A program made the translations under genes and the position numbers. A stretch of DNA of 64,000 nucleotides from Candidatus Iainarchaeum sp. (lineage in GTDB: Archaea > Iainarchaeota > Iainarchaeia > Iainarchaeales > JAFCCW01). The notes under the pieces were generated by a model. It saw nothing but the letters and a program-made list of their open reading frames with translations. It did not search any database and was not told where the DNA came from. The DNA lies in contig JAFCCW010000010.1 of assembly GCA_017609985.1 (NCBI GenBank), positions 1,765-65,764 of the forward strand, in the 5' to 3' direction. Shown in pieces: positions 9,586 through 36,708 of the stretch (within the stretch, counting starts at the first letter, position 1; every line of letters begins with the position of its first letter).

Positions 9586-9630
9586 TTTTAAAGAAAACGA
9601 AGCTCACGCAGGATTTCCGGTGAACTTGAA
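9586..9630 (-). promoter_or_regulatory. promoter of the degenerate PolB gene with upstream GTTCACCGGAA element
   Basis: minus-strand TTCAAGTTCACCGGAAATCC (9630-9611) and CTTTAAAA TATA at 9593-9586; second variant copy GTTCACTGGAA at 9652-9642. Confidence 0.7.
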
Positions 9631-9654
9631 AGGATGGAAAATTCCAGTGAACTT

Positions 9655-11187
9655 TCAGAGAAACTCTTTTGCTTCCTCTTCATTTTGCTTTTTGCTTTCT
9701 TCAAATCTTCGTCCTGCGTCTTCAAGGCTTACTTCATGCTTTGAATCCTGGCTTTTTTTCTCTCTTACTTTGAAGAACACTGGAAAGGAAACAGCTTCTC
9801 CCACGATTAGGGCTTCTCCAACTCGGAGAGAGGTAATCATGTCAAGACTTCTCCTATCCAGAGCTTCAGCGCTTTTAGCAACATGGTCAAGATCGTAAGG
9901 ATTTGTAATTCTGAGAATAATCTTTGTATTGCACTGGCTGAGAGCAGTTGTGTCAAGCTGTATAGGTCTTTGAGAAACAAGGCAGAGGCTTGCTCCAAAT
10001 TTTCTTCCCTCTCTAGCAATCGTTCTCATGATTCCTTTTGCAATAGCAGTATCTTTTCCAGCGCGCTCTGGAATAAACTGGTGTGCTTCCTCTAAGACAA
10101 GGAGGAAAGGGGGAAGCAGCTTTTTTCTTCTATCATAGAAAAGCCTCTGGGCAAAATAGCTTACAATAATCTGCTTTTTCTTGACATTAATTATATTGCT
10201 CAAGTCAATGATTGTGAGTTTGCCTGGCTCCACAAGGTCAGAAATGCTTGGACTATCCGCTTTTGAGAAAAGCTTTAATTCTTCGAGATGAGAAATCCAG
10301 CCAAGAAGCGCAATTTTTGTGTTTTCCTTCATGTCCTTGTCTCCAGCAATAGCTGTCTGAACATCCTTCAAATCAAATGCTCCAAGGCCACGCCTCATCT
10401 CCACGTTAAGATTTGAAATAATTCTTCCCAAATCTCTTTTCTGGGCTGAAGAGAGGCCGGGAATGATTCCTGAAAGAATTCCAATGCTGAGCTTTGGAAC
10501 CCCGATTTTCACTTTCTCTGCTTTCACAAGATTTGTTTTACTGGAAAAATCCTTTTTTCCTTGTTCAGCAGGCTCTGCAAAGCTGGAGTATTCACCGTGC
10601 GGGTCAAGCACAACTGTCGCAATTCTTCCCTGCTCCTGATTTCTCTCTAAAAGCTCTTCAAAGAGAACAGACATCAAGTAACTTTTACCTCCACCGGAAA
10701 GAGCCAAAACAGCAAGATGTTTCTTCAAAAGAGAGCTTAAATTCAGCTTAACATCAAGATCGTGGTATTCAACTTTTCCAAGTTCCAATCCGGTTTCAAG
10801 GTCAAAGCCGAGGAACTGTTCCAAGTGCTTGTTGTCAGCAATCTTTACCTTTGTTCCAGGGGACGGGGGAAAAGAAGGACGCTTTACAAGTTTTTTGGAA
10901 AAAACACCAAGAGGTCTTGTCTTTGCAATTAAAAATTCCCATTCTTCTGTTGGAAACTGTTCAAATAATTTTTTTCCCTGGCTCTCAAATTCTTTGACTG
11001 ATTCAGCGCGCTCAAAATATCTGTTTGTTTTAACAACATCGTTGACAAGGCAAATCATTGTTCCCTCAGAATAGTCAAGCTCTACAAACATTCCCCTGTG
11101 AATCACGCCGGATGTCACAACAAAGTCAACACTGCTGGGAGAAGGAGATTCAAGCCCTGAAATAACTGTTCCTATTTCTTCATTCAT
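9655..11187 (-). CDS. herA: HerA bipolar DNA helicase/ATPase
   Basis: N-terminal HAS barrel, KHLAVLALSGGGKS Walker A, DPHGEY, LEEAH Walker B, REGRKFG, SQRP; downstream of nurA. Confidence 0.9.
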   Translation of the reverse strand: MNEEIGTVISGLESPSPSSVDFVVTSGVIHRGMFVELDYSEGTMICLVNDVVKTNRYFERAESVKEFESQGKKLFEQFPTEEWEFLIAKTRPLGVFSKKLVKRPSFPPSPGTKVKIADNKHLEQFLGFDLETGLELGKVEYHDLDVKLNLSSLLKKHLAVLALSGGGKSYLMSVLFEELLERNQEQGRIATVVLDPHGEYSSFAEPAEQGKKDFSSKTNLVKAEKVKIGVPKLSIGILSGIIPGLSSAQKRDLGRIISNLNVEMRRGLGAFDLKDVQTAIAGDKDMKENTKIALLGWISHLEELKLFSKADSPSISDLVEPGKLTIIDLSNIINVKKKQIIVSYFAQRLFYDRRKKLLPPFLLVLEEAHQFIPERAGKDTAIAKGIMRTIAREGRKFGASLCLVSQRPIQLDTTALSQCNTKIILRITNPYDLDHVAKSAEALDRRSLDMITSLRVGEALIVGEAVSFPVFFKVREKKSQDSKHEVSLEDAGRRFEESKKQNEEEAKEFL

Positions 11188-11384
11188 TTCTTTTCACCAA
11201 GTTTTTTTCTGAACTTATTAATTGTTTTATCATCAGCCTCTAAAATATATCCCTCAAAACCGCATTCTTCACAATAATAGTTGTTGAAGAAAGCACTTGA
11301 AACCTTCCAAGGAGTAATTGGAATCTTTATTCTCTGCGAACCGCATCTCGGGCAAAATTTTGCAAGCTTTTCTTCTTTTTCCAT
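11184..11384 (-). CDS. small Zn-ribbon protein (CPxCG...CxxCG)
   Basis: FCPRCGS...YYCEECGFEG; lies between nurA and herA and overlaps the herA start. Confidence 0.75.
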   Translation of the reverse strand: MEKEEKLAKFCPRCGSQRIKIPITPWKVSSAFFNNYYCEECGFEGYILEADDKTINKFRKKLGEKK

Positions 11385-11394
11385 TTTATTGCCT

Positions 11395-12492
11395 CTAAAA
11401 CGGGCGAGAATCACGCCTCATTCTGACATTAAATTGTCTTCCAAGCCTGTCAAGAATTTTTTCATACATTATGTTAATTTCATCAGGCCTTAGCCTTGCC
11501 CTGAGGTCTGCTTCAATCAAAACAGTTGGATAAGCATACTCGCGGTGCATTGAGCTTAACGAGTAAGTAATTGAAGCAATCTTGTCAGCTTTTTTTTCAA
11601 CATCCTTTGCATCTGCAAGAAATTCAATACGCAATGGTCTGTCATATTTTGCAGGCTTCAGATAAACAGCATGAACCATTGAAGCCCATTTTTCACTGAA
11701 ATCGGACAGAATAGGGTGGTCTTTTGCTGTTGGAGAATACTTGAAGGCAATGCTTCTCTCCCCCTGTTCCAGCAGATAGTCAAGCAAAACAGAGTCATAG
11801 CAGTTGTCCAATGCACTGCCATCAAACTCTTGTTCCTTTGAAAGCACCTGCTCCTGCAAAATTGTCCTGAATCTTGAACCGCGAGAATCCTCAATACAGG
11901 AAACAATAGTGCTCTTGTTTTCCTCTGCGGAGGTGTAAAGTGCTTCAAAAGAAGCAATAAGCTTTTTGTAAAAATCTGCGACAGCAGAATCACTTCTTGG
12001 CTTGTCCATATACTGTGGAATAATGCTGCCGTCCAAAAACATGTAATTTGGCTTAAATTTTTCAATAGTCTCTCTTGCAGTGTCTATTTCTTCAATAAGG
12101 CGCCTCATTGACTTGGAAACCTCAAACTCGTCATTGTCAAGAGCAGAATTACTCAAATACGGTCTTGGAAAAGAGAACACGCGCGGATAATAATCAGCTT
12201 TTTCAAGCTTTCCCTGTTTGTAAGAAAAAACAGCAGAAACAGTTTTGATAAGAATGATGTCAAGGGAAAACAAGCCCTTTCCAACAAAACCAGAGTCAAC
12301 ACCGGCAACTACTCCACTAACTTCTTGCGATTCAAGTTTTTTGACAAGATTTTCCTCAAGCAGTTCAGGAGAAGCGTAACCTGACAGGCTTTTTGTTTTA
12401 AGCGGAGAAAGCTTTTTTGCAAAATCTCGTCTTCCAGACTCTGCTCTGGCAATTGTTTCCACTGCATCGCTGATAACAGAATTAAACGACAT
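11395..12492 (-). CDS. nurA: NurA 5'-3' nuclease
   Basis: AGVDSG, FLDGSI, YPTVLIEADLRAR; operon with herA. Confidence 0.88.
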   Translation of the reverse strand: MSFNSVISDAVETIARAESGRRDFAKKLSPLKTKSLSGYASPELLEENLVKKLESQEVSGVVAGVDSGFVGKGLFSLDIILIKTVSAVFSYKQGKLEKADYYPRVFSFPRPYLSNSALDNDEFEVSKSMRRLIEEIDTARETIEKFKPNYMFLDGSIIPQYMDKPRSDSAVADFYKKLIASFEALYTSAEENKSTIVSCIEDSRGSRFRTILQEQVLSKEQEFDGSALDNCYDSVLLDYLLEQGERSIAFKYSPTAKDHPILSDFSEKWASMVHAVYLKPAKYDRPLRIEFLADAKDVEKKADKIASITYSLSSMHREYAYPTVLIEADLRARLRPDEINIMYEKILDRLGRQFNVRMRRDSRPF

Positions 12493-12511
12493 GAAAAAAC
12501 ATTGTTTGGAT

Positions 12512-12551
12512 GTTTATAAAAAAGCTTTCAGGCTCCGGCATTCCGGTGAAC
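12512..12551 (-). promoter_or_regulatory. nurA-herA promoter with upstream GTTCACCGGAA element
   Basis: minus-strand GTTCACCGGAA (12551-12541) and TTATAAAC TATA at 12519-12512, about 20 bp before the ATG (leaderless geometry). Confidence 0.7.
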
Positions 12552-12588
12552 AGGAAAAGAATAAATTGCCTGAAAACATTCTTTTTTA

Positions 12589-13374
12589 GTGGCTAAGAAA
12601 AAAGTAATCGCAATAGTTCCTGTATTCAATGAAGCAAGGGAAAGAAATTATCCCCTGGTTTTGAGAGCATTAACCAAGGCAAAAAAAGAAAGAATAATAG
12701 ATGGTTTTGTTGTTGTCAATGATGGGAGTACTGACAGGAGCGAAAGAATTGCGAGAAAGCACAAAGCAGAAGTTATTGGATATCCTGACAACCGGGGAAA
12801 GGGTTCTGCAGTTTTAATAGGGTTGGAGCATGCGAAGAAAGCCGGAGCAGACATTGCAGTTTTGCTTGACGCTGATTTAGAAAATTTATGTTCTGCACAT
12901 ATTCAACAGCTTGTTGAACCAGTTGCAACAGGCAAAACAGTTATGGCGGTTGGAAATCCAAGAGAAGCAGGAAAGTTTCCTTTAGATATTACTAATTCAG
13001 GTGAACGCGCTCTTGACTTGTCCGACAAATACTTTGGGGGCTGGATTGAAAGAAAGCAATGGAGTGATTTTTTACAGACCAGCAGGTTTGGAGTTGAACT
13101 TGCTCTAAACTATTTTGCAGAGCAAATGACTCGCAAAAATTATGCGCAAAGACACAGATTAATCAATTTTTCTCCCCCTTTGAATTCTGCATTACCTTAT
13201 AGAAAGTCTCGTAATGCTGATGATATTCAATTTCGTGAAATTGACCGAGCCAAGGACTTTATTTCGGCAAGGATTGAAAAAGTAAAAGCTTGGAAACATA
13301 AACAAGCAAAGAAGAGACACGAGGCAAGACTGAAGGAATACGAAGCAAGAGCCGGAAAGGGACATATTAAATAA
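12589..13374 (+). CDS. glycosyltransferase family 2 (GT-A)
   Basis: IVPVFNE, VVNDGSTD, NRGKG, LDAD, SGERA, FGVE. Confidence 0.85.
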   Translation: MAKKKVIAIVPVFNEARERNYPLVLRALTKAKKERIIDGFVVVNDGSTDRSERIARKHKAEVIGYPDNRGKGSAVLIGLEHAKKAGADIAVLLDADLENLCSAHIQQLVEPVATGKTVMAVGNPREAGKFPLDITNSGERALDLSDKYFGGWIERKQWSDFLQTSRFGVELALNYFAEQMTRKNYAQRHRLINFSPPLNSALPYRKSRNADDIQFREIDRAKDFISARIEKVKAWKHKQAKKRHEARLKEYEARAGKGHIK

Positions 13375-13486
13375 TCTGATAACTTAACAACCTAATCTGC
13401 AAATTCTTTAATAAAATTCTTTCAAATCTCAATACAAAAACCTTAAATTCCAGTTAAGCACTCAGTTTTAAAGGAGGGGATGTTTT

Positions 13487-13696
13487 GTGATAAAATCTGA
13501 AATACTGAACAGTGTTTTGATTGTAGCAGGTTTGGGAATAGCTGTGATTTCAACAGGAATTACTGGTGTTCAAACAGCAGCATTTGCTGGTCCAGCAGAG
13601 CTTGGAAGTTTTGCAGGATTTAATGCTGTCGGGGTTGCTGCAGGAATAGTTGTTCTGTTGATTGGTCTTGTTTTGGCTGCCGGGAATGAGAAATAA
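13487..13696 (+). CDS. small two-helix membrane protein
   Basis: GGAGG RBS, two hydrophobic Gly/Ala-rich segments. Confidence 0.7.
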   Translation: MIKSEILNSVLIVAGLGIAVISTGITGVQTAAFAGPAELGSFAGFNAVGVAAGIVVLLIGLVLAAGNEK

Positions 13697-13726
13697 GTTT
13701 TTATAGTTTAAAGCTATTATTTTTCC

Positions 13727-14431
13727 ATGGTTGATTCGCTTTCAATAGAGCTTGTTTTAAGCCAACTTCAGGCAGATTTTTTGCCAATGGCAATTTACGC
13801 ATTAGCAATTGTTTTGTACGGAATAATTGTCTGGAATTTTTACAGCAGTCTTGGAAGACGAGATATATTTCACGCAGAACACGAGCATGGCATTGGCTGG
13901 GTTGTAAAACTAAGAAACAGTGTGAGAAGTGTTTCACTATTTCTTGATTACTTAATTGTTTTTCCTTTAATCAGCGTAATCTGGTTCTGCATTCTTTCTT
14001 TGTTCATGATATTGTTTTCAAGCACAACCAATATTCAGGAAAAAATGATTATATCTGTTGCATTAATTTTTGCAACAAGAATCGCTGCTTACTATAATGA
14101 AGATCTTGCAAAAGATCTTGCAAAGATTATTCCCTTTGGTCTCTTAGGCGTTTATCTTGCAGACCCGAAGTTTTTCTCGCTTGATTTAGCAATAAACCAG
14201 TTCATGCAGATTCAAAATGTTGAAGTTCTTTCAAAAATATCTGTTTCCATTGCCCTTATTATAATGTTGGAATGGGGTCTGAGGCTTCTTTACAAGCTAA
14301 AGGTTCTTGCTCTTGGAGAAGCAGAGGATGGAGACGAAGTTGAAGTTGAAGAAGTAATTGAAGAAAAAATAGAGGAAAAAGTAGAAGAAAAGCTTAATCA
14401 AAAAGTAAAACAAATAGAAAAAACAAAATAA
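13727..14431 (+). CDS. membrane protein with acidic tail
   Basis: several hydrophobic segments, RIAAYYNEDLAKDLAK. Confidence 0.75.
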   Translation: MVDSLSIELVLSQLQADFLPMAIYALAIVLYGIIVWNFYSSLGRRDIFHAEHEHGIGWVVKLRNSVRSVSLFLDYLIVFPLISVIWFCILSLFMILFSSTTNIQEKMIISVALIFATRIAAYYNEDLAKDLAKIIPFGLLGVYLADPKFFSLDLAINQFMQIQNVEVLSKISVSIALIIMLEWGLRLLYKLKVLALGEAEDGDEVEVEEVIEEKIEEKVEEKLNQKVKQIEKTK

Positions 14432-14456
14432 TTCTTCTTTTTTTGGAGTAGTTTTT

Positions 14457-15368
14457 ATGAGAAAAGGATATTTGATAGTGTTATTGCTGGCAGTGCTCTG
14501 GTCGTTTCCACCAATTATCATAACTGTGCTTGGAGGCTATTTTGATGCTTTTTCTCAAAACTTTTACAGGTTTTTTTCAGCAGCAGTATTTCTCATAATT
14601 ATTTCCTATTTGCACAAAAAAGACGAATTTATTGCTACTCTTAGAAATCTTCGTCAGTTTATTCTCCCATTTTCTCTGATATCCCTTTTTCAAACACTGT
14701 TTGTTATTGGAATTTATCTGACTAGTCCCGCAATAACTGCCTTTGTTTCAAAGCTTGACGTAGTGTTTGTTGTTATTTTTGCATATTTTATGTTCAAGGA
14801 TGAGAGAATGATTATAATGCACAAAGAATTTCTTGTTCCCGCATTACTTGCCTTTGTTGGAGTAATAGGAGTTGTGCTTGGAAAAGGAGGGGAAATAGGC
14901 ATTACTTCCGGCGCGCTGATTATTGTGTTTGCAGCAATGCTTTGGGGGCTTTACATAAATACAGTAAAAAAAGCAGTTTCTCACATAAATCCATTAATAG
15001 CTGTCACTTTCATCTATTCACTTTCAACAATCGTCTTGCTGGGAATAGCTCTTGTTTTTGGAAAAATGGAAAGCATTCTATCAGCTCCTGTTGAAATAAA
15101 CCTGCTGTTGATTATTTCAGGAATTCTGTTTGTAGGAATAGCAAATGCAATGAACTATTTTGTAATAAAGGATATTGGGGCTTCCCTTACTGCAAACTTT
15201 CTTTTAATAACTCCTTTTCTTACTGCTCTTTTTTCAAATATTATTCTCGGAGAAGAAATAACAATTGTCCAGCTTTTCTTTGGACTGATTTTGTTAACTG
15301 GTCTTGGATTGCTTGCAAAATACAGAAAGCTATTTGAAGAACATATTGTTACGCATTCTTCCAAATAA
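14457..15368 (+). CDS. DMT/EamA family transporter
   Basis: about 300 aa, about 10 TM segments in two repeats, ILGEEIT motif. Confidence 0.85.
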   Translation: MRKGYLIVLLLAVLWSFPPIIITVLGGYFDAFSQNFYRFFSAAVFLIIISYLHKKDEFIATLRNLRQFILPFSLISLFQTLFVIGIYLTSPAITAFVSKLDVVFVVIFAYFMFKDERMIIMHKEFLVPALLAFVGVIGVVLGKGGEIGITSGALIIVFAAMLWGLYINTVKKAVSHINPLIAVTFIYSLSTIVLLGIALVFGKMESILSAPVEINLLLIISGILFVGIANAMNYFVIKDIGASLTANFLLITPFLTALFSNIILGEEITIVQLFFGLILLTGLGLLAKYRKLFEEHIVTHSSK

Positions 15369-15445
15369 TTAATTAGCCTGGTTTCTTTTCCTTATTTTGC
15401 TTCTTTTTTTCTTTTCTGTATTTTCTTTCTCTTTTTTTATTTTCC

Positions 15446-15910
15446 TTATTTTTCTTCTTTGTCTTCCACTTCTTCGCTTACTTCTTTAGGTTCACTTTCA
15501 GTTTTGCTTTCTTCTGCTGTTTCTTCTGTTGCAAAATCAAATTCTTCTCCTTGAACAAGCATTTTGAAAGCATTGTTGACAAAGCCAAATATTACAAAAG
15601 AGTAAATAGTCAGTCCAATAAGCTCAAACCAAATCGTCCCGAATAAAGGGAGGAGTGCTGCAATAACCACTAAAAGGAGAGCACTTTCTTTTGAAATCAT
15701 TAATTCAATTCCTGTGAGGATTAGCCAGATAACTACAAACAGCTGAGCATAGTAAAAATCAATAGAGCCGGTTATTAAAAAAAATCCAGCCACAATCAAG
15801 ATTATTTTCAGTTTTTCTACTCCGCCTGATTTGAAGAAAAAAATAGCTATTGCAATCCAGATTATGAGAGTTAAAACAGCAGAATAATATTCAAGAGCAA
15901 GCTCAAGCAT
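15446..15910 (-). CDS. membrane protein with acidic tail
   Basis: 4-5 hydrophobic segments; ATG 15910. Confidence 0.7.
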   Translation of the reverse strand: MLELALEYYSAVLTLIIWIAIAIFFFKSGGVEKLKIILIVAGFFLITGSIDFYYAQLFVVIWLILTGIELMISKESALLLVVIAALLPLFGTIWFELIGLTIYSFVIFGFVNNAFKMLVQGEEFDFATEETAEESKTESEPKEVSEEVEDKEEK

Positions 15911-15974
15911 TAAATATTTTTTGAGCAAAACATTTATAATAAAGATAAAAGCCTATAATACTCTTGGTGTGGGA

Positions 15975-16808
15975 ATGACAATATCTTGTAAATATGTTTA
16001 TTTTTCTCTGTTTCTTGTATTGCTGTTGGGTTTTTCATTTTCTTCCCCAATAATAACTGGGTTTGATTTTCCCTCGGAAAAGCTTAATGTTGGAAAAGCA
16101 AAAATTGAAGTTTTTGCAGACAGCAAAAACGAAGTCAAAGAAAAAAATGAACAGAACAACAAAAAAATAACTGTTTTTGAGAGAATAGGCGGGCAATTTT
16201 GCTTGCTTGAAAAATGCGGAAACTGGGTTGATGATGACTGGGATGGATTGATTGATGAGGGATGTCCCTGCAATGAAGGCGAAAAACAGGACTGTGGTTT
16301 TGAAATAGGTTCGTGTTCCAAAGGAGTTCAGGTTTGTTTTGAGGGTCTTTGGAGCGGAGACTGCATTGGAGCAGTACTTCCAAAAGAGGAAGTTTGCGAT
16401 AACCTGACAGATGATGATTGTGATGGGCTAGTGGATGAATGGTGTGGTTTAGGCAGAATTTACTCTTTTGATATTTTTGTAACAAAAGAAAATCTTCTTT
16501 TTGGAATGAAAGTTGTTCCTGATGATTCTGAGGGCGTGTTTGCAAAAATTAAGAACAAAAAAAACCAGGAAGACAGGAATGCGTCATCAACTCAGCTTTA
16601 TCGAGAAAGACACGGAGACTTTGATTTAAGAAGTTTTGAAGGAGAAGGAGTTGAGGAAAACAGTGATTACAATCTTTCAGTTCAATCAGACGCAATCGAA
16701 GAAGGCAGAGCAGAGCATTCTTTCAGAACTTGGCTTGCTTCCTTTGCTGATAAATTCAAAAAGAAAAAAACACAAAAAGATAAAACTAGAATAAGTTCGT
16801 ATACATAA
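15975..16808 (+). CDS. secreted protein with MopE-related Cys/Asp metal-binding repeats
   Basis: signal-like N-terminus; EKCGNWVDDDWDGLIDEGC and EVCDNLTDDDCDGLVDE repeats. Confidence 0.7.
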   Translation: MTISCKYVYFSLFLVLLLGFSFSSPIITGFDFPSEKLNVGKAKIEVFADSKNEVKEKNEQNNKKITVFERIGGQFCLLEKCGNWVDDDWDGLIDEGCPCNEGEKQDCGFEIGSCSKGVQVCFEGLWSGDCIGAVLPKEEVCDNLTDDDCDGLVDEWCGLGRIYSFDIFVTKENLLFGMKVVPDDSEGVFAKIKNKKNQEDRNASSTQLYRERHGDFDLRSFEGEGVEENSDYNLSVQSDAIEEGRAEHSFRTWLASFADKFKKKKTQKDKTRISSYT

Positions 16809-17299
16809 CACCTTAGGAAACACATTCTTACTCAAAGAAAAAAACTATTTCTCTTTAAAAAATGCTTTTTTCGCCCTTATTTGCCCCCAAAACCCTACCC
16901 CTTGTGCATTAAAAGAAGAAAAAACAATTTTTGGTTTGAATTGCTTTGCTTTATTTCTTAAAAAGTTAGTAATGATAACAAAAATGGTGTTTATTATTTG
17001 ATTTTTGTGTTTGTTTTTTTACTTGTTTATTTCTTGTGGTTGGGAATTTGCAAGTTAGTTGCTGTGCAAACAGAAGAAATAATCAAGGGTGTTGCTCTTT
17101 TGATATTGGTTTCTAGCGCAGGCGACTTGAAAAAACATGTTTTTGCAATCATTGCAAGGAAAGTCTGAGTTTTGATTCTTGTTTGTTGATTTGATTTGTT
17201 TTTTTGTTCTTGAGGGGATTGTTTTTATTGCAATATTGTTCAAATTCGGTTCTAAACCCATAAAAAGTATAAGTATACATAATTATTTTAGTGTTTTTT

Positions 17300-17698: not shown

Positions 17699-17717
17699 AA
17701 AAAAATATGGTTTTGTT

Positions 17718-17825
17718 CTATTTATTGTTTGCTCTTTCATGAACAAACCTGCATCTATTGCATCTGAATCTTGTTTCTGTTCCGGAAATGCGGGTGCTTC
17801 CGCAAGCAGGGCATTTTTTCACCAT
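17718..17825 (-). CDS. CPxCG-type micro zinc-finger protein (35 aa, not in ORF track)
   Basis: MVKKCPACGSTRISGTETRFRCNRCRFVHERANNK. Confidence 0.75.
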   Translation of the reverse strand: MVKKCPACGSTRISGTETRFRCNRCRFVHERANNK

Positions 17826-17874
17826 ACAGTTTTTAAGGATGCTAATCATTAAAATAAATTACTAAGGTGCTTGA

Positions 17875-19590: not shown

Positions 19591-19630
19591 GTTCACCGGA
19601 AACCCTGGGGGCATCGCTTTGCTTTTAAAG
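19591..19630 (+). promoter_or_regulatory. promoter with GTTCACCGGAA element upstream of small Zn-finger ORF
   Basis: GTTCACCGGAAACCCTGGGGG from 19591; TTTTAAAG at 19623. Confidence 0.65.
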
Positions 19631-19671: not shown

Positions 19672-19809
19672 ATGGAAAGAATTGAAGCAAAATGCAGGAT
19701 TTGTGGAGAAATAATAACTGGAAGGAATGCAGATAGTTTTAGAACAAACTGGTACCAGCACGAATTGGATTCAGAAAAACATGTTGCTTGCGCGCTAGCA
19801 AAATGCTGA
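19672..19809 (+). CDS. small C2H2-like zinc-binding protein (45 aa, not in ORF track)
   Basis: AGGAGG RBS; MERIEAKCRICGEIITG...WYQHELDSEKHVAC... Confidence 0.7.
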   Translation: MERIEAKCRICGEIITGRNADSFRTNWYQHELDSEKHVACALAKC

Positions 19810-28926: not shown

Positions 28927-28988
28927 ATGCTCTAATATGTTGCGAAAAAAAGATAATTAAAGGGGGAAGGGGATGGGGAAACAAAATA

Positions 28989-29123
28989 TCAGGTTCTAAT
29001 ACACTTTTTAGCAAAAGCGAGCTTCTCGTCTGAGAGACAAGTGCCTCCCTGACTTAGGGTCCTACACAACTTAATGGCTTTTTCAGCGCTCATTTTTTCA
29101 GTGCAAAGAATATCTTGTTTCAT
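28989..29123 (-). CDS. small Cys-containing protein (44 aa, not in ORF track)
   Basis: MKQDILCTEKMSAEKAIKLCRTLSQGGTCLSDEKLAFAKKCIRT, consensus promoter upstream, pyrimidine tract downstream. Confidence 0.5.
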   Translation of the reverse strand: MKQDILCTEKMSAEKAIKLCRTLSQGGTCLSDEKLAFAKKCIRT

Positions 29124-29152
29124 CCAAAATCCCTGTCAGTATAATATGCTAA

Positions 29153-29172
29153 GTTATTTATATACTTTTCGG
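29153..29172 (-). promoter_or_regulatory. consensus BRE-TATA promoter
   Basis: minus strand CCGAAAAG-TATATAAATA. Confidence 0.65.
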
Positions 29173-29446
29173 TAAAAAAAACCCAAATTAGGCTTTTTTT
29201 TAAGTATGGGTAAAACAGGAGGATTTATAGGAAAAAAGAGCTTCAAATTAGCCTTTTTTCTTATGTATATTTTTATTTTTTTGCGGGTTTTTTAAAAATT
29301 TTTTTTGGGAAAAAATAGCCGTTATGTATATTTGTGCTTTAAAGAAATAATCTATTTCCTTAAGAAACAGAATCTAATCTTGTTGGTTTTATGTCTGTGA
29401 ATTGTGTTCTTTAAGTAGTTTTTTTCTTTTTCTGCTTGTCTTCTTT

Positions 29447-31339
29447 TTACTTGAGCCTTACTGCGTCAAGATTCTGGAGTGAAGAAGCATTTACTCTGAA
29501 CTTGTTTGAGAAATATTTTGAGAGAGACATGCAATTATGCTTGTCTCCGTGATTTATCAGAATTCTTTTTGGTTTTGGCTTTAAGTGTGTTACATAACTT
29601 GTAAGTTGTCTTATGTCTGAATGTCCTGAAAATCCTTCCACTGTTTCAACCTTCATGTTTATATTCAATGCTCTTGTTCTTCCCTTTTCAGTTGTTATTG
29701 GAATTTCCTTGTTGCCATTCTGTATTTTTCTGCCCAAACTGCCTTCTCCTTGCCATCCAACAAAAACAAGAGCATTTGCTGGATTTTCCGCCATTTTGTA
29801 CAAGTATTCTAGTGAAGCACCGCCCGTGAGCATTCCCGAACTTGCCATAATAATTGCTGAACCATTCTCTAATATTTGATCCCTGTTTGTGTAATCTGCG
29901 GTTTCAAAAATTTCTGAAGTAAATGGTGAGTCATTCTGGAGAATTCTTCTTTGAACATTTTTTCTCAAATACTCTGGATATGCTGTGTGAATTGCTGAAG
30001 CCTCTCTAGTCATACCATCAACATAACACTTTGCTTCAATAAGTCCTTTTCTGTAAAAATTCTCTATAACGAGCATTATTTCCTGTCCTCTTCCCACTGC
30101 AAACACTGGAATTAACAGGCTTCCATCTCGCTGAATTGTTTCATTAATTATGCGCAATAACTGGTCTTCGCTCATTTGTCTGTTTGGTTGAACATCATTC
30201 TTTCCCCCGTAAGTGCTTTCAATTATCAGAGTTTCAAGCCTTGGATACTTTATATCCACGTTATTGAATAATCTTGTAAACCCGTATTTGATGTCTCCAG
30301 TGTAAACAAGATTATGGTCTCCTTCTCCTATGTGCATGTGCACTGAAGCACTTCCAAGAATATGTGCTGCATTGTGCAGTGTCATTCTCAAATCCGGAGC
30401 AATATCTGTTACTTCCCTGTAATCTCGGGGAATGCTATGCGTTATCATATCCTTTACATCTTTTTCGCTGTAAGGTGGTTCTTTTCCTTCCTTTACAAGC
30501 ACGTCAATGTAATCAAACTGTAGCAAAGTCATCAAGTCCCTGGTTGGCAAAGTACTGTAAACTGGTCCTTTGTAACCGAGCTTGAACAAGTATGGGATAA
30601 ATCCAGAGTGATCTAAGTGAGCATGTCCAACAATAACAGCGTCCAGTTCGTTCATTGGAAAATTTAGAGAATCAAGATATGGGAATGGTTCGTCTGTTGC
30701 AGCAACATTTATTCCACAGTCCATCAAAATCTTTGTGTTTGTTGTTTCAAGCATTATACAGCTTCTTCCAACCTGTCTAAAGCCTCCGAGTGCAGTTAAT
30801 CTAACCCATCCCTTGCTGTTTTCTGGAACCTCTCGATAAATATTTTCTGCTACTTCTTTTAGGATTTTCTTTCTTTCAGAGCTATTATTGAACAAATGTC
30901 TTCTGATTCCTGTGAGAATATCACTTTTTGAAGTTGGGGCTCTTAAAATATTTGGAGTCCAGCCAGTCTGAAGAATTATTTCCTTTGATGTTTCCCCGCC
31001 CTTGCCGATTACAAGCCCTGGTTTCATTACTTCCATCACAACCTCTGAAAAAGAGTGATCAAACATCATGTCCTGTATTCCAGCATCTTCCGGAACAATT
31101 TCATTAATTTTCTTTTTTGCTTCTTCTTCATCCATCAGCATGTTCTTTGATGTTCTGATGTTTACTCTTTTCTTTAGTTCGTGAGCAAGCTTTGCTACGT
31201 AATTCTCATTTTCAAAAAAAGCTTTTGGGTTTTTTGTATAAATAGCTACTTCTGGGCCTTCAAGCTCTACTTTTGAAATCTGGGTTTCCCTTGGCAGGAT
31301 TTCCTGCACAATATCCTCTGTTTCCTTTAGTATTTTCAT
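29447..31339 (-). CDS. beta-CASP ribonuclease aCPSF1 (FttA)
   Basis: N-terminal KH domains (GLVIGKGG), HAHLDHSG, AHILGS, ESTYG, FSGHSD. Confidence 0.95.
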   Translation of the reverse strand: MKILKETEDIVQEILPRETQISKVELEGPEVAIYTKNPKAFFENENYVAKLAHELKKRVNIRTSKNMLMDEEEAKKKINEIVPEDAGIQDMMFDHSFSEVVMEVMKPGLVIGKGGETSKEIILQTGWTPNILRAPTSKSDILTGIRRHLFNNSSERKKILKEVAENIYREVPENSKGWVRLTALGGFRQVGRSCIMLETTNTKILMDCGINVAATDEPFPYLDSLNFPMNELDAVIVGHAHLDHSGFIPYLFKLGYKGPVYSTLPTRDLMTLLQFDYIDVLVKEGKEPPYSEKDVKDMITHSIPRDYREVTDIAPDLRMTLHNAAHILGSASVHMHIGEGDHNLVYTGDIKYGFTRLFNNVDIKYPRLETLIIESTYGGKNDVQPNRQMSEDQLLRIINETIQRDGSLLIPVFAVGRGQEIMLVIENFYRKGLIEAKCYVDGMTREASAIHTAYPEYLRKNVQRRILQNDSPFTSEIFETADYTNRDQILENGSAIIMASSGMLTGGASLEYLYKMAENPANALVFVGWQGEGSLGRKIQNGNKEIPITTEKGRTRALNINMKVETVEGFSGHSDIRQLTSYVTHLKPKPKRILINHGDKHNCMSLSKYFSNKFRVNASSLQNLDAVRLK

Positions 31340-31390
31340 TTATATCACTGGCCTTTAAGGTCAAGGCAATAAGATAAAGCAAGCGTGAAC

Positions 31391-32041
31391 CTAGTTTGCT
31401 TTATTCTCAATGAATTTTTTAACTTTAGCGTCGTCAATTTGTCTTACTCCGTTCTGGTCTATGACCATAACAGAAATTGAGACTCCGCCAGAGTAAATAT
31501 CCCGTTTTTTTGCAGCACTAACTGCTTTTACACAAAGCGCTATTCCTTCATTCTCTGTTAATCCTGTTTTGTACTGCTGGTCTAGGACGCTTAAAGCAAG
31601 CTCTGTTCCCGAACCAGAAACAGCATAGCTCTTTCTTTCAAGAATTCCGCCGAATGGGGTTATCTCAAAAAGTTCTGGTTCGTTATTTACTCCGCCCAAG
31701 ATAAACTGGGCAATAAATGGATAATATCTGTTTGCATTCAAAACATTTGAAAGATATGCTGCTAATGCCTTTGGAGTAATCATTGTTTCTCTTTCAACCT
31801 CGTAGAGGTTTGCATGACTCTTCAAAAAGCGAATAACTGTAAGAGAATCTCCAACAGACCCAGCGTTAGTAACTGCAATTCTTTCAGTTATTTCATAAAT
31901 TTTCTGGGCTTCCTCATCATAAGCAAGGTGACCCATTGAAGCACGCATGTCTGCTGCAAGAACTACTGCATTTTCAGTAATAATTCCAACCGTAGTTGTT
32001 CCTGTTTTTAAATCCTGTTTTTGATCCAATAAAACCACCAA
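31391..32041 (-). CDS. psmB: proteasome subunit beta
   Basis: KTGTTTVG propeptide junction, AADMRAS, AGSVGD, GSG, RDIYSG. Confidence 0.95.
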   Translation of the reverse strand: MVVLLDQKQDLKTGTTTVGIITENAVVLAADMRASMGHLAYDEEAQKIYEITERIAVTNAGSVGDSLTVIRFLKSHANLYEVERETMITPKALAAYLSNVLNANRYYPFIAQFILGGVNNEPELFEITPFGGILERKSYAVSGSGTELALSVLDQQYKTGLTENEGIALCVKAVSAAKKRDIYSGGVSISVMVIDQNGVRQIDDAKVKKFIENKAN

Positions 32042-32110
32042 ATAAAAGAGCCTATTTTTTGGTAATAACTTCCTACTGACAAAGGTTTAAAAAGCTAATT
32101 TTTGTCTTGT

Positions 32111-32686
32111 TCAAGAAGGCTTTGAAACCACAAGAGTGTTTCCCTCAAATCTAGGTTTCCAGCCTTTTTTTTCAAGAGATTTCAGAAAATCACTTCTTTT
32201 TTGAATATTTCCTGAAATCTGCAATTTTCCAATTCTTGTTTCTCCACCTTTTCTTACAACTCTCATCATTTCATTAATTACTTCAAACAATTTTTTTTCA
32301 TAAATTGACGCAGAATAACTTGCAATCAAAAGATCAAATGATTCTCTTTTGAATGGAAGTTTTGCCCAATTGCCTGTGACAGCTTTTTTAAGTCCTATTT
32401 TGTTTGAATATTCTCGCATAGCTTCAAGATTGAATGCAAGATCAAGCGATACTATATTGAATGGTTTTTTGCTATATTTGTGTCCAAGTCTTGAGAATCC
32501 AGAACCTATGTCCAGTACTCTTTTTCCTCGCAGGTCTTTTTTAGTTAACTTAAGATTTCTTAAAATTTCAGAGGCTGGTCTTTGAGTCATACCCAACCCT
32601 TGCCAGATAGCGTCTTCAAAAATTTCCTGCCTTTCTGCTTTTAATCTTTTAGGGTCAAGTTTTGCAATTCTCTTTCTTCTCAACAT
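32111..32686 (-). CDS. class I SAM-dependent methyltransferase
   Basis: VLDIGSG, LPFKRESFDL, EMMRVVRKGG. Confidence 0.85.
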   Translation of the reverse strand: MLRRKRIAKLDPKRLKAERQEIFEDAIWQGLGMTQRPASEILRNLKLTKKDLRGKRVLDIGSGFSRLGHKYSKKPFNIVSLDLAFNLEAMREYSNKIGLKKAVTGNWAKLPFKRESFDLLIASYSASIYEKKLFEVINEMMRVVRKGGETRIGKLQISGNIQKRSDFLKSLEKKGWKPRFEGNTLVVSKPS

Positions 32687-32695
32687 ACAATTAGT

Positions 32696-33496
32696 TTACT
32701 TTTCTTCCTTTTTATCTTTTGTCGTTCCTTCGGTTTCTTTTTTTTCTGTTTTGTCTGCTGTTTCTTCTTTCTTAGCACTGCTCTTTTCGCCTGTTTTCTC
32801 CTTTCCTTTACTCTTCTCTTTTTTCTTTCCTTCAAATTCTTCAACAAACACAACCTTCTTTATTCCAAGATTACTTCCTGTCAGCGAATCAGAAAAAATC
32901 TTTTTCAGCTGAGCAATTGCCTGTCCATACTTAGCATCAATTCTGACAACTGCTTCTTCTCCCTTTACCTTAAGCTCTGCTTCTCCTTTTGGAAGCCCGC
33001 CAAAATATTTTTCAAAAACTGCTTTTGTTCCCTTTTCCTTGTCAGTAATCTCTTCCTTTATTTCCACATCGAATTCTACGCTTCTTCCAGCCAGGGGGTG
33101 GTTGAAGTCTACTCTAACCCTTCCTCCGCTCACTGATTGAACACGCGCGTTTCTTCCATTTGCTTCAATAATCATGCCTGGAAAAGGTGTCATTTTCTCT
33201 TTTTTAAATTCTTTAAGTGGAATAACCTTTACAAGTTCTGCGCTTCTCTCTCCAAAAGCCTCGCTTGCTTCTAACTCCAGCTTCTTGTTGTCTCCCTTTT
33301 TCATTCCGATTAATGCCTTGTCAAGCCCTTGCACAAGCTCTCCCTTGCCTGCAACAACAAGAACTGGTTCATATTTGCCATTTCTTGACTCTGCTTGCTT
33401 GTCAGCATCTTTTTCTCTTGTTGTGTCAAAAACATCTCCGCCCACAACTCTTCCAGTATAATCAATTTTTGCTAAACTCCCTTCTTTCAAAGCCAT
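32696..33496 (-). CDS. long-type FKBP peptidyl-prolyl isomerase (SlyD-like)
   Basis: DYTGR...FDTT, EAFGER, GRVRVDFNHPLAG. Confidence 0.92.
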   Translation of the reverse strand: MALKEGSLAKIDYTGRVVGGDVFDTTREKDADKQAESRNGKYEPVLVVAGKGELVQGLDKALIGMKKGDNKKLELEASEAFGERSAELVKVIPLKEFKKEKMTPFPGMIIEANGRNARVQSVSGGRVRVDFNHPLAGRSVEFDVEIKEEITDKEKGTKAVFEKYFGGLPKGEAELKVKGEEAVVRIDAKYGQAIAQLKKIFSDSLTGSNLGIKKVVFVEEFEGKKKEKSKGKEKTGEKSSAKKEETADKTEKKETEGTTKDKKEEK

Positions 33497-33588
33497 TTAT
33501 CTCACCTTTATAAAAACCCTTTTTAATGCTTTTCATACAAAAAACAGTAATAAGATTGGCTTATGAAACTTTTTTAAAGGTGTGTTAA

Positions 33589-34332
33589 ATGGAAAAATGG
33601 CAAACTATTCTCATTCTGATTGTGATTGCAATTGGTTTTTCAGGACTGAGTTTTTTCGGAAGCCAGAATAATTCGGGAAACAATACTGAGGACATTCCCC
33701 CTTTGTTCAATCCAGACCAGAGCCAGGTCACAATGATTGCTAAGGGAGTGGAAATAGAAATCGCAAATTTGCTTCCGACAATTTATGTTGAAGCTGAAAC
33801 AGAGGAGCTTGACGCACAACCAATCGCAGAACAACTTTACAAGGTTGAAGGAGTAAAGATAGTTAACAATCCAAAGCTCTCACTTCAATACCAGAACTTG
33901 CTTACATTCTCGGCAACAATTTCTTTTGAAACAGATCAAACTGCTGAAGAAATTCTTGCAAGAATAAATGACCTGAATTCTCTGCCTTTTGTTTCCAAAG
34001 TAAGAGGACAAGCTTTCGCAGTTGTAAACCTGCCAGCTCAGCTTGAACTTAGTCTTCCAAACGATGAGAACACTACAATGCTTCACAAGTTTGAAGAATC
34101 AATGGCTAACGCAATAATCTATTCTCTTGACAAAAAGAACGGGGACACAATCACTGCAGATGTAGCAGTTGTTCTTGCTGGAGAAAAAGCTCTTCAAATA
34201 GCAGTTGAAGAACAGGTTCCAGTTCAAGAAATCAGCGAAGGGGAAGAAACAGAGTTAAGTTCTGAAGACAATACTCTTCCTGAAGAACAGACAGATGAAT
34301 CACCGGAATCCGATGAAGAAGCAAGCGAATAA
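33589..34332 (+). CDS. membrane-anchored acidic hypothetical protein
   Basis: N-terminal TM, acidic tail. Confidence 0.7.
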   Translation: MEKWQTILILIVIAIGFSGLSFFGSQNNSGNNTEDIPPLFNPDQSQVTMIAKGVEIEIANLLPTIYVEAETEELDAQPIAEQLYKVEGVKIVNNPKLSLQYQNLLTFSATISFETDQTAEEILARINDLNSLPFVSKVRGQAFAVVNLPAQLELSLPNDENTTMLHKFEESMANAIIYSLDKKNGDTITADVAVVLAGEKALQIAVEEQVPVQEISEGEETELSSEDNTLPEEQTDESPESDEEASE

Positions 34333-34398
34333 CTGTTAAATAATTATTCTTCATTTTTTTCTTGCACTATCAAATTGTCTTAGTGTCTTAGCTGAATT

Positions 34399-34701
34399 TC
34401 AACCATTTCTCTGAGTGACGCTCCTGAATGCCCCTGTGCCTTGAAATGGTTTGAAAGTAATTTTAGCTTGTTCTCTTGTCATGTTTTTGTCTCTTGCAAG
34501 CACTTGCCCAAAACCAGCGTTATCTTTTCCCTTTCTTTTTAATTTAGCTGTTACTCTTGCTAATTCAGTATTGGAAATTCCCATTCTCCGTTGCTCGTTT
34601 TTCCCGCGCTTAAAATCTGCTCCTAATTTGCCACAAACATCTTCAAAATGTCTCCTTTGCCCTTTTTTTATCTCTCCCGGTCTTCTTGGAATTTCATTCA
34701 T
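34399..34701 (-). CDS. basic hypothetical protein
   Basis: overlaps the nac stop; 100 aa. Confidence 0.55.
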   Translation of the reverse strand: MNEIPRRPGEIKKGQRRHFEDVCGKLGADFKRGKNEQRRMGISNTELARVTAKLKRKGKDNAGFGQVLARDKNMTREQAKITFKPFQGTGAFRSVTQRNG

Positions 34702-35038
34702 CTCCTTTCAGTTCCAGGATTGCTTCTGCTATGTCGCCCTCGTTTTTCTTCAATGCAGCTTCTGCTTTTTTCTCGTCTACTCCTGCCTGTTCCATTACCA
34801 TCTTGATGTCTTCTTCCGGAATCTTTTTTCCCTCTTCTTTTTCTTCGCCCATTATTGTGTAGGTTTTTTGTCCCTGCATTTCAACTGCTGAAACACTTGG
34901 CTTTTCTATAACAATTTTTCTGTCTTTTAACTCAATCGTAACCCGCTCGGCTTCAAGCTCTTCTGTCTTAATTCCCAGTTGCTTCATCATCTTGCCCATC
35001 TGCTTTGGATTCATTCCTTTTCCCATTCCCGGAAACAT
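34694..35038 (-). CDS. nac: nascent polypeptide-associated complex protein
   Basis: MNPKQMGKMMKQLGI; C-terminal UBA EDIKMVMEQAGV...GDIAEAIL. Confidence 0.93.
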   Translation of the reverse strand: MFPGMGKGMNPKQMGKMMKQLGIKTEELEAERVTIELKDRKIVIEKPSVSAVEMQGQKTYTIMGEEKEEGKKIPEEDIKMVMEQAGVDEKKAEAALKKNEGDIAEAILELKGDE

Positions 35039-35129
35039 TCAATCACCTCTTTTTTTGCCTTGTTTTTTTCTTTCTTATTCATTCTTGTTCCAAAAAACTT
35101 ATTAACTTCTTGACACTTCTATTTTTTAG

Positions 35130-35774
35130 ATGAGCTTTATCATCTCATCAGTGGAAAAGTTTAATGAAATAGCTGGAAATGATTTTGAGAGAGATGAGGC
35201 TCGAATTTCTGCAATGGAGCATTATTTTTCAAAAGGGGGAGTAATCAAGGTTGCTCCATCTTCAAATAGTTGGCCTTCTCTACTTTATCCAAATCCTTTA
35301 AATCTGAAAACCAAGATTGACAAGCTTTCAACAAACAGAGGAATTTTTCTAAAAAAACAGTTTGCTTGGAAACAAAAGTTGAGGGATGCTAGCATTTATG
35401 AACTGGCAAACAATGTCAAAAAATTTAAGGAAAAAGCTTACTGGAAGCATGTTTCCAAGTACATGTCTGACCAGGATTATCGAGCAGATGCTGACTCTGT
35501 AAAGCTTCCGATTCATCTCGTTGCAGACAAGCGCTGGAAGCCAATGATTGAAATGTTTGTGGAAGACTATGACTATAGAAAGAAACTCACAGAAACAGTT
35601 GAGAAAAGCATTGTTTACAAAGATGACAAGCGCGTTGCCCGATTTGCTGACGTAATCCAGTCATTTCGTGTAGACGAATCCACAAAAAAAATCAACGAGC
35701 TTCAGGCAAAAATTGATGCAATTGACAAAGACATTGAATCAATGAAAGAAATGATGAAATGGGGCAAAAGCTAA
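35130..35774 (+). CDS. hypothetical protein
   Basis: 214-aa ORF with coiled-coil C-terminus. Confidence 0.7.
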   Translation: MSFIISSVEKFNEIAGNDFERDEARISAMEHYFSKGGVIKVAPSSNSWPSLLYPNPLNLKTKIDKLSTNRGIFLKKQFAWKQKLRDASIYELANNVKKFKEKAYWKHVSKYMSDQDYRADADSVKLPIHLVADKRWKPMIEMFVEDYDYRKKLTETVEKSIVYKDDKRVARFADVIQSFRVDESTKKINELQAKIDAIDKDIESMKEMMKWGKS

Positions 35775-36613
35775 AATCTTTGTTTTCCCGATGACTCTCC
35801 ATTGATTGCATTTATTGCATTGTTAATGACAACCATTGGAAGCTCGTGGTCTGTTCCTTTCACAGGCCCTAACTGTCTTATTTCTTTAATTCTGCTTTCA
35901 AGCTCTGGAATTATTTGTGTTTTGAGAAGTTCAATGATTTTTTCTTCTCTTTGTTCATGAGCTTTTCTTGCAATATCTGTAATTCCTTGTGCGCAAAGTC
36001 CTGAAAGAGATGGATTGCTGTGCTCTATTCCAAAAACTAATCCTTCTGCTGCTTCAATTCTTTTCATTCTAAATCTAATTCCTGCCTTTTTCAAGTGCTC
36101 TGCTGCTTCTTCTCTTATTGGTTGGTTGTGCTCATTTTCAACAGTCTCTGACAAAAAACTTGTTGACCTTTCTCCAATAGTAAAAAGTGTTTCCACAAAA
36201 GAATGCCTAAAATAATTCTCTCTTCTTTTTACATCTTGGCTTGTGGATTCTTTTGATTTTCTTCTTGAAGCAGTAATTATGTCGTGATAGTATGTTCTTC
36301 CATCTGCTCCAAGATGATTTATTGCTGCAAGAAGAGCATTAACTCTTATTTTTGGGTTTTCATATCTAAGCAGTCTGGAAACAATGTCGTGCACAAGCTG
36401 TGTTGGAACAGAAGTTCTTATTCTTAGCGCGTTTGCAAGATACTCTAATTCGGTTTCATCTCCTCTTTCCATAATTTCCGCAATAACTTTCACTGCTTCT
36501 CGTCTAAATTCATTCTTGCCCTCTGAAGCAATTTCAAGAAAAGTATGGGTATTTTCTCTTTCCTGTTCTGGGTCTCTGCCAGACTCTCCTGCTCTTCTAT
36601 TTCTTCTAATCAT
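35771..36613 (-). CDS. HEAT-repeat-like hypothetical protein
   Basis: ENPKIRVNAL and NQPIREEAAEHL HEAT-like units. Confidence 0.55.
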   Translation of the reverse strand: MIRRNRRAGESGRDPEQERENTHTFLEIASEGKNEFRREAVKVIAEIMERGDETELEYLANALRIRTSVPTQLVHDIVSRLLRYENPKIRVNALLAAINHLGADGRTYYHDIITASRRKSKESTSQDVKRRENYFRHSFVETLFTIGERSTSFLSETVENEHNQPIREEAAEHLKKAGIRFRMKRIEAAEGLVFGIEHSNPSLSGLCAQGITDIARKAHEQREEKIIELLKTQIIPELESRIKEIRQLGPVKGTDHELPMVVINNAINAINGESSGKQRF

Positions 36614-36663
36614 AAAAAGAAAACAATTCGAGTCAATAAAACTTTATTGGAAATTTTTCTTCC

Positions 36664-36708
36664 TTCAAGTTCACCGGAAATCCAGTGTGCTTCAAGCAGT
36701 ATATAAAG
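36664..36708 (+). promoter_or_regulatory. promoter with GTTCACCGGAA element
   Basis: TTCAAGTTCACCGGAAATCC (20/20 identical to the minus-strand copy at 9611-9630) and TATATAAAG at 36700. Confidence 0.7.

Follow-up and report, generated by a model that had tools for sequence, protein, structure and literature searches.

A conserved element upstream of TATA boxes marks a putative genome-maintenance regulon in the archaeal order Iainarchaeales

A stretch of 64,000 nucleotides from Candidatus Iainarchaeum sp. (GenBank assembly GCA_017609985.1, contig JAFCCW010000010.1; hereafter, the window) contains a short oriented promoter element, the conserved half of which is the 11-mer GTTCACCGGAA, and this element very probably marks a genome-maintenance regulon, as the site for a sequence-specific regulator that would sit upstream of the B recognition element (BRE) and the TATA box. 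What argues for this is the combination of a single orientation, a narrow spacing to the TATA box and conservation upstream of orthologous genes in the order Iainarchaeales (DPANN), to which all of the relatives compared belong, none of them being from the source's own family. The element was picked up in a first reading of the letters of the window alone (the sequence-only reading), which proposed a DNA-repair activator circuit. Our literature search on archaeal repair promoter motifs and on regulation in Iainarchaeota/DPANN, with incomplete coverage and without supplements, found no description of it and, within the same limited coverage, no described regulon of any kind for uncultured DPANN archaea.

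Element copies and promoter geometry

Exact copies of GTTCACCGGAA lie in the window at 9615-9625(-), 12541-12551(-), 19591-19601(+) and 36669-36679(+), all four being where the sequence-only reading had placed them, and one-mismatch copies lie at 9642-9652(-) and 12996-13006(-). These six matches with at most one mismatch compare with 0.54 expected, and 0 of 100 shuffles got to six. The copy at 12996-13006(-), which is within a coding region and has no TATA box, is taken as a chance match. At each of the four exact sites a TATA-like octamer (CTTTAAAA, TTATAAAC, TTTTAAAG and ATATAAAG, respectively) starts 32 bp past the G of the 11-mer, as had been claimed. We also saw again the 20 bp common to two copies, namely the 20-mer TTCAAGTTCACCGGAAATCC at the 9625 and 36669 sites, as well as the variant copy at 9652-9642, and a G-run follows the copy at the 19591 site.

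The source genome (G000) consists of 1.16 Mb in 37 contigs, with 38.8% G+C and 87% completeness, the window being C18:1765-65764. The exact 11-mer occurs six times in it, four of these in the window, and a TATA box follows in all six cases, while 14 genomic sites have in common a more extended pattern in which TTCACYGGAA is followed by n-CC-n-G-n-G, an AAAG-like BRE and TATA. When a position weight matrix (PWM) built from these 14 sites was scanned over the 1.16 Mb, the training sites scored 25-36 bits, the next site (C27:1156, the sole extra one outside the training set, with a TATA box and a gene following) scored 21.4 bits and the remainder 17 bits or less. All 15 sites are oriented identically, towards the gene, and at 14 of them a TATA hexamer starts 29-32 bases past the first T of TTCAC, one site being without a listed hexamer. 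The first matching hexamer is found at 29 in five sites, at 30 in six and at 32 in three; the window sites have a hexamer at 32 in four cases out of four, and the 12551 site also matches at 30 and 31. The placement relative to TATA boxes is thus non-random throughout the genome, as predicted, whereas the spacing, taken from the four window sites to be fixed at 32 bp, is better described as constrained (29-32 over the 15 sites).

The same geometry is seen in relatives, where 16-23 bp, most often 18, separate the core from TTTAWA in 100 of 106 instances. Start codons are found 57-67 nt past the first T at seven sites in G000 and, in relatives, 38 of 56 downstream ORFs (open reading frames) begin 10-39 nt past the TATA box, most commonly 21-24 nt, which is the spacing of leaderless archaeal mRNAs. 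This geometry is that of nurA, whose ATG at 12492 is 27 bp past the start of the TATA box.

The 11-mer is the conserved half of an element of about 18 bp, the form of which in G000 is (G/T)TTCACYGGAA-N3-4-CCnGnG, while the order-wide logo obtained from 95 sites reads k-CACCGG-m-A-r-y-c-y-r-C-T-C-y. On the basis of the canonical archaeal TATA position, as given in the available part of PMC5817253, the element would span about -56 to -39, of which the core would take up about -56 to -49 and the second box about -44 to -39. The best palindrome in the window is at the 36669 site (CACCGG-AAAT-CCAGTG), and the proximal element at 9605..9625(-) combines a strong half (CACCGG), a 4-bp spacer and a weak half (CCTGCG). 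The roughly 40 bp from element to TATA box are partly conserved among the G000 sites, and the flanks differ from site to site. We rejected the idea that the palindrome acts as an RNA hairpin, since most relatives have a second half (CTCy) that is non-complementary, and no compensating change accompanies CACTGG where it occurs.

Conservation across the order

In the upstream regions of the 515-aa PolB-like gene from 30 genomes, the core CACCGG(A/C)A is kept: of 29 other genomes, 17 have the exact, sense CACCGGMA no more than 160 nt from the gene, and 22 qualify if one mismatch is allowed and a TATA box is present, against a background at these loci of one match in 249 kb of strand-bases. At this promoter, two copies of the element are found 27-29 bp apart in eight of the 30 genomes, including G000. 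Upstream of radA, the exact core is present within 230 nt in 13 of 29 other genomes (the background being nine exact and no full matches in 216 kb), and the element precedes nurA in seven of nine genomes. These orthologues are single-copy genes from many families, with 30-85% protein identity. Over 121 genomes of the order, CACCGGMA-N17-25-TTTAWA gives 329 matches versus 31 for the reversed control, and 36 genomes have at least four matches versus none for the control.

The strict G000 form recurs in few relatives, with about ten sites in G011 and about four in G031. These precede not only orthologues of the genes for the PolB-like protein, RadA, NurA, a Hel308-type helicase, a PD-(D/E)XK nuclease and a DUF7718-like ORF, but also HTH-LAGLIDADG (helix-turn-helix and homing-endonuclease-like), PIN, Fic, Bro-N and TnpB genes. 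A wider view is given by 60 sites from nine other genomes, from which radA and PolB-like sites were left out; 56 of them have an ORF of at least 45 aa behind. Clustering of these ORFs with the G000 targets identified NurA in seven of the nine genomes, eight HTH/LAGLIDADG proteins, four Hel308- or Hef-like helicases, and two each of MCM, orthologues of the 77-aa protein, PIN and C5-methylases, to which Pfam adds N6/N4 and Eco57I-type methylases, a radical SAM protein of the spore-photoproduct-lyase type and a protein with a PolB exonuclease domain. In 11 genomes from other orders of the same class there are only 0-3 exact matches each, so that the element, in its exact form (diverged forms were not sought), was not shown outside the order.

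Genes behind the element

The products of the G000 targets with Pfam matches are Rad51/RadA, MCM, NurA, a Zn ribbon protein, HerA, a DEAD_2/XPD-like helicase, a PDDEXK_1 nuclease, a D12 (Dam) methylase, a radical SAM protein with HhH and a LAGLIDADG_3 protein, while the poorly characterised ones are DUF7718 and ORFs of 45, 63, 77 and 149 aa. Pfam thereby confirms the nurA-Zn-herA operon that had been read downstream of the element (Table 1). The predicted enrichment in repair genes stands in so far as radA carries the element, here and in relatives, and most targets belong to recombination, repair or replication. It does not extend to rad50 (4934-7000), two genes for PCNA and one for DNA ligase, which, like both cdc6 genes, hel308 and the genes for transcription factor B (TFB) and the TATA-binding protein (TBP), have no element upstream (best matrix scores -14.5 to -1.1). 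Not counted here is another gene for ligase, which is at a contig end, its upstream region not being readable. As for hel308, its orthologue lies directly behind the element in three relatives (G011, G086 and G056). The two PCNA-like genes, at C17:14347-14661 and C17:9632-9907, are both found in this 1.16-Mb genome.

Table 1. Elements, TATA-like boxes and genes in the window.
Feature	Position	Strand	Remarks
PolB-fold gene (515 aa)	8012..9559	-	No Pfam match; present in 104/121 genomes of the order
TATA-like box CTTTAAAA of PolB-like gene	9586..9593	-	ATG at 9559, 34 bp past box start
Proximal element GTTCACCGGAAATCCTGCGTG	9605..9625	-	5' of PolB-like gene; PWM 30.6 bits (training-set site)
Distal variant copy GTTCACTGGAA	9642..9652	-	27 bp upstream of proximal element, PolB-like gene
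nurA-Zn ribbon-herA operon	9655..12492	-	nurA 11395-12492, 76-aa Zn ribbon 11184-11414, herA 9655-11187; Pfam
TATA-like box TTATAAAC of nurA operon	12512..12519	-	Read from sequence
Element GTTCACCGGAATGCCGGAGCC	12531..12551	-	5' of nurA; motif count, read sequence, PWM
Element GTTCACCGGAAACCCTGGGGG	19591..19611	+	5' of 45-aa ORF
TATA-like box TTTTAAAG	19623..19630	+	5' of 45-aa ORF; read from sequence
Cys/His-rich ORF (45 aa)	19672..19809	+	Preceded by GGAGG
Element GTTCACCGGAAATCCAGTGTG	36669..36689	+	5' of 77-aa gene
TATA-like box ATATAAAG	36701..36708	+	5' of 77-aa gene; read from sequence
77-aa gene (four beta strands and a helix)	36873..37106	+	Leader ~165 nt
Hel308-type helicase gene	37751..39868	+	Own upstream region without element, best PWM -5.7

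The 515-aa protein, which had been described as a degenerate PolB, is predicted to have the fold of family B DNA polymerases. Its AlphaFold (AF2) model has a pLDDT of 88.5, and the 50 best Foldseek matches are all PolB chains, headed by 5mdn_A (E 1.9e-11, TMq 0.56, 11% identity). A sequence search of PDB chains found nothing, a profile search against PDB gave a weak match to 5mdn (E 0.018) and the Pfam PolB models remained unmatched. As to whether the catalytic DxxSLYPS/DTD and exonuclease DxE motifs are kept, the invariant alignment columns of 20 orthologues have D334 and E311 as their only acidic residues and contain no DTD. The same 20 orthologues have four invariant cysteines (C254, C256, C257 and C356), which suggests a metal or Fe-S site. 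The operon partners of PolB2 (arCOG07300, inactive RadA) are not found 3' of the PolB-like gene, where there are instead genes for RpoK and ribosomal S17e.

The 77-aa protein, proposed to bind single-stranded DNA, is conserved under the element, since its orthologues in two other families (G016 and G103) have the same element and leaders of 150-170 nt. Its model (pLDDT 84.7) consists of four strands and one helix, and the best Foldseek matches, Pur-alpha and PC4 homologues at E 0.09-0.35, are not clear ones; a VIA comparison gave a top Z of 5.3 to a YbaB-like chain and 4.3 to Pur-alpha. Within the leader of this gene, 30 nt past the TATA box, starts a 24-codon ORF (36731-36805(+)) with a GAGGTGA ribosome site, which may encode a leader peptide. 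The predicted 45-aa Zn-finger ORF exists and is Cys/His-rich, but was found in none of the 120 other genomes of the order, i.e. it is lineage-specific.

Several features of the promoters and transcripts are worth recording in their own right. The radA gene of G000 is not leaderless but has a 5' leader of 80-90 nt (L069:1418-1503, on C25), in which the same long hairpin was found in all eight genomes folded singly (L069, L071, L072, L074, L079, L083, L090 and L097). It is made of an outer stem, an A-rich internal loop, an inner stem of GGGG/CCCC type and a CCAAAG-like loop, with stem sequences that differ between genomes and single-sequence z-scores of -0.2 to -2.9. Rfam had no match for these leaders and RNAalifold found no structure on a MAFFT alignment; the leader may be an unrecognised cis-regulatory RNA. 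The radA frames of at least 20 genomes (e.g. G031, G044, G106 and G111) are 750-1567 aa long with a split match, which points to one or two inteins.

A box, GAGCAGGYTA, is common to three element-driven transcripts, those of the 149-aa ORF (C3:3341; L007), DUF7718 (C25:89633; L003) and the Dam methylase (C32:4357; L008). It lies 57-58 nt past the first T of the element, which would be the transcription start, and the remaining 11 genomic copies are not linked to an element. Three tRNA genes (L010:1164-1236, beside C27:1156, L004:3791-3864 and L002:3716-3788) are found close to element sites, two of them directly upstream of element promoters and the third some 200 nt downstream of the C23:93989 site. 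The LAGLIDADG-gene site beside a tRNA looks like a mobile insertion. Apart from tRNAs, an Rfam search with gathering thresholds gave no match around the sites.

A putative activator site

The mechanism that we propose would run as follows. A single sequence-specific DNA-binding protein would occupy the element, touch the TFB/TBP complex and set the output of about 15 promoters, so that a genome-maintenance set comprising radA, nurA-herA, mcm and the genes for the XPD-like helicase, the PolB-fold protein, the PD-(D/E)XK nuclease, the radical-SAM/HhH protein and the Dam methylase would be switched together. The position 5' of the BRE, the single orientation, the narrow spacing and the combination of an invariant 8-bp core with a lineage-specific box all fit the site of a protein that contacts TFB/TBP. 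Archaeal activators typically bind upstream of the BRE, as stated in the accessible part of PMC5817253, and because the element sits there we favour activation, i.e. its factor is probably an activator. That the genes bearing it are co-regulated is suggested by its presence, above background, upstream of their orthologues. In relatives, the same element also has selfish or accessory genes behind it (HTH-LAGLIDADG, PIN, DNA methylases, Bro-N and TnpB). As for the trigger, the recombinase, the nucleases, the PolB-like protein and the selfish genes recall an SOS-type damage regulon, while mcm and the methylases would fit a replication or cell-cycle programme equally well.

A number of observations weigh against this reading of the element as a regulator's site. 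Five of the 15 targets are small ORFs without assigned function, and the C23:93989 site has no clear gene behind it. The upstream regions of rad50, the two PCNA genes, one ligase gene, both cdc6 genes and hel308 lack the element, so that the regulon would be selective rather than inclusive of all repair genes. The exact core is scarce in some families (0/10 genomes in f30, 1/11 in f3 and 1/7 in f31), and radA has no recognisable element at the three loci read in family f27; family f30 has another word of related sequence, ACGGCGG or CCACGGCA. Circularity affects the PWM scores of the 14 training sites, and TATA boxes and transcription starts are those predicted from the sequence. Finally, the second half-site depends on the lineage (CCnGnG in G000, CTCy elsewhere), which makes both the palindrome and a dimeric binder uncertain.

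Candidate regulators

Compatible with a regulator's site is the more specific proposal, already raised by the sequence-only reading, that the regulator is an Orc1/Cdc6 paralogue acting as a transcription factor, comparable to Orc1-2. There are two such genes in G000, the first in the window (48977..50194) and the second, cdc6-2, on the minus strand at C25:4005-5132 (also L099:4005-5132). It was the first that had been named, and it is adjacent to an element in none of 16 genomes; it is the second that shows a modest adjacency, with a promoter-type element no more than about 300 bp from its 5' end, in divergent arrangement, in five of 20 genomes (G016, G031, G103, G078 and G042). We regard cdc6-2 as a tentative candidate. 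Its orthologues are found in nearly all families of the order, elements are also near it in G076 and G066 (~90 bp) and in G048 and G040 (600-700 bp), and in G031, G048 and G020 it lies next to the PolB-like gene, in divergent orientation. A PolB2-arORC2 neighbourhood occurs in many euryarchaea according to the available text of Makarova et al. (PMC4104785), and there is a precedent in Sulfolobales, where the portions at hand of two papers describe an upstream motif at -44 to -39 (PMC5817253) and Orc1-2 as a regulator (PMC6061795).

Several points count against cdc6-2, however. The genomes with this adjacency represent only about three independent families (f17, f23 and f32); it is missing in G000, where the region upstream of cdc6-2 has no element, and it could mean that cdc6-2 is simply a target. 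In family f31, a single Cdc6 match was found in seven of seven genomes, yet one of them has an exact element match. Both paralogues are nearest, among solved structures, to initiator-type Orc1-1/ORC1 chains (2qby_A at 3e-60 and 2.7e-70) and far weaker to Aeropyrum ORC2 (1w5s, 1.5e-17 and 3.7e-15), the sequence of Sulfolobus Orc1-2 being outside this comparison.

The likeness to origin recognition boxes (ORB), from which an Orc1/Cdc6 protein had been suggested in the first place, is also weak order-wide. The G000 element has a T-T-C ... G-G-A-A-A look, one G-run and, in some relatives, single copies near cdc6. In the part of PMC1904270 available, the mini-ORB of Pyrococcus is given as TTCCAGTGGAACT, in which 'TTCC' and 'GAA' are conserved. 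In contrast, the present core, CACCGGMA, has one base fewer between TTC and GAA, and no TTCC, and the two T's are not kept across the order, the base before CACCGG being G or T. Moreover, whereas ORBs cluster round an AT-rich unwinding region, the present elements appear to be single, promoter-linked and scattered. The densest grouping, five cores in 11 kb, is near cdc6-2 in G016; no inverted arrays were seen in the genomes examined, and G000 has none.

The surroundings of cdc6-2 have other features. In many genomes of different families (G016, G015, G038, G065, G101, G008 and G022 are examples), cdc6-2, the PolB-like gene some 50-60 kb off and radA a further 40-50 kb away are on one contig. 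In G103 (L160:1329-1860), a second element precedes an apparent RelB/RelE-type toxin-antitoxin pair, named by eye, between cdc6-2 and the next element. Two further proteins were considered as regulators and rejected: an E2F/DP-like winged helix, for which the PF02319 match was only E 0.09, below the cut-off, and a winged HTH protein of ArsR type near cdc6-2, as an autoregulated candidate, which is behind an element in G103 but whose operon in G000 has none.

More speculatively, and with limited confidence on our part, the element may stand for an SOS-like or G1/S-like programme throughout Iainarchaeales (radA, mcm, nurA-herA, hel308, xpd and an inactivated PolB), activated by an initiator-type Orc1/Cdc6 paralogue, with genes for homing-endonuclease-like proteins, toxin-antitoxin systems and methylases having captured the element.

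Alternative explanations

If the element were instead the operator of a LexA- or DdrO-like repressor, released after DNA damage, the targets would make sense, since a recombinase, nucleases, a polymerase-like protein and genes of mobile or toxin-antitoxin type make up a list similar to those of SOS or RDR regulons. Two operator copies are common in tightly controlled SOS genes, and the PolB-like promoter is double-copied in eight of 30 genomes. Nevertheless, we consider repression unlikely: the strict orientation and the 29-32 bp spacing to TATA suit contact with TFB/TBP better than occlusion, the essential replicative helicase gene mcm is among the targets, and archaeal repressors usually bind over or 3' of TATA/BRE, sites upstream of the BRE being those of activators (PMC5817253, as far as its available text goes).

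Much less probable still is an extended core promoter read by an alternative TFB or TBP. The element does adjoin the BRE, the 40 bp to the TATA box are partly conserved, and TFB paralogues drive damage or cell-cycle programmes in Sulfolobales, according to the accessible part of bioRxiv 10.64898/2026.09.06.749720. Yet the 87%-complete genome was found to contain one gene for TFB (a 302-aa frame with two cyclin repeats) and one for TBP (a 219-aa frame with two repeats), which argues for a dedicated factor and against an alternative basal one, and the core, some 20 bp 5' of TATA, would be beyond the reach of BRE contacts.

An origin of the pattern in repeated or mobile DNA (a copied promoter cassette), or in chance, is hardly credible and seems largely refuted by the conservation upstream of orthologues, for although multi-copy HTH-LAGLIDADG genes have been copied with their promoters (two G011 copies are near-identical past TATA), two G000 sites are just 3' of tRNA genes with a third near one, and two window copies have 20 bp in common, the flanks vary from site to site, the element precedes single-copy orthologues (radA, nurA and PolB-like) in many diverged families, and shuffled and reversed controls are far lower.

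Comparison with known systems

A close parallel to the proposed activator site is the damage regulon of Sulfolobales, in which a short oriented element directly 5' of BRE/TATA also marks damage-response genes. Both sets include a PolB2-type polymerase and mobile-DNA functions, Sulfolobus dpo2 being damage-induced. The Sulfolobus motif, A(N)TTTC at -44 to -39 (PMC5817253, available part), coincides in position with the weak proximal half of the present element, which, however, reads CCnGnG in G000 or CTCy in relatives. The present element thus has another sequence, is much longer and combines an invariant core of 8 bp (about -56 to -49) with a second box. It also belongs to a DPANN phylum and has radA, mcm and nurA-herA among its targets, and its induction by damage is a hypothesis. 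Likewise, an Orc1/Cdc6 paralogue, Orc1-2, is the proven regulator of the Sulfolobales damage response, in what was available of PMC6061795, and a candidate only in the present system.

More generally, the element resembles archaeal upstream activator sites, which lie just 5' of the BRE at a constrained spacing, implying recruitment or stabilisation of TBP/TFB (PMC5817253, in its accessible part); here too, it is found upstream of BRE/TATA with a fixed orientation and a constrained spacing. Such sites, however, serve no more than one or a few operons of archaea that are in culture, in contrast to some 15 promoters per genome, kept across an order. Examples of them are those of Ptr2, Lrp-type factors, TFB-RF1 and EarA, and the ArnR boxes. 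The bacterial SOS (LexA) and Deinococcus RDRM/DdrO systems are alike in that one cis-element joins a recombinase, nucleases, a specialised polymerase-like protein and selfish elements. These are repressor operators that overlap bacterial promoters, whereas the present element is upstream of an archaeal TATA box.

Concluding remarks

The control of repair and replication genes in archaea is known in detail only for Sulfolobales and partly for haloarchaea. For Iainarchaeales, the element now provides a list of putatively co-controlled genes and a bait for their regulator, and it helps to assign functions to proteins such as the PolB-fold protein (104 of 121 genomes), the 77-aa protein and DUF7718. 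In addition, selfish genes appear to be plugged into the host's genome-maintenance circuit. If it were true that an Orc1/Cdc6 protein regulates this circuit, the logic of an initiator doubling as a transcription factor would be widespread in archaea rather than a speciality of Sulfolobales.

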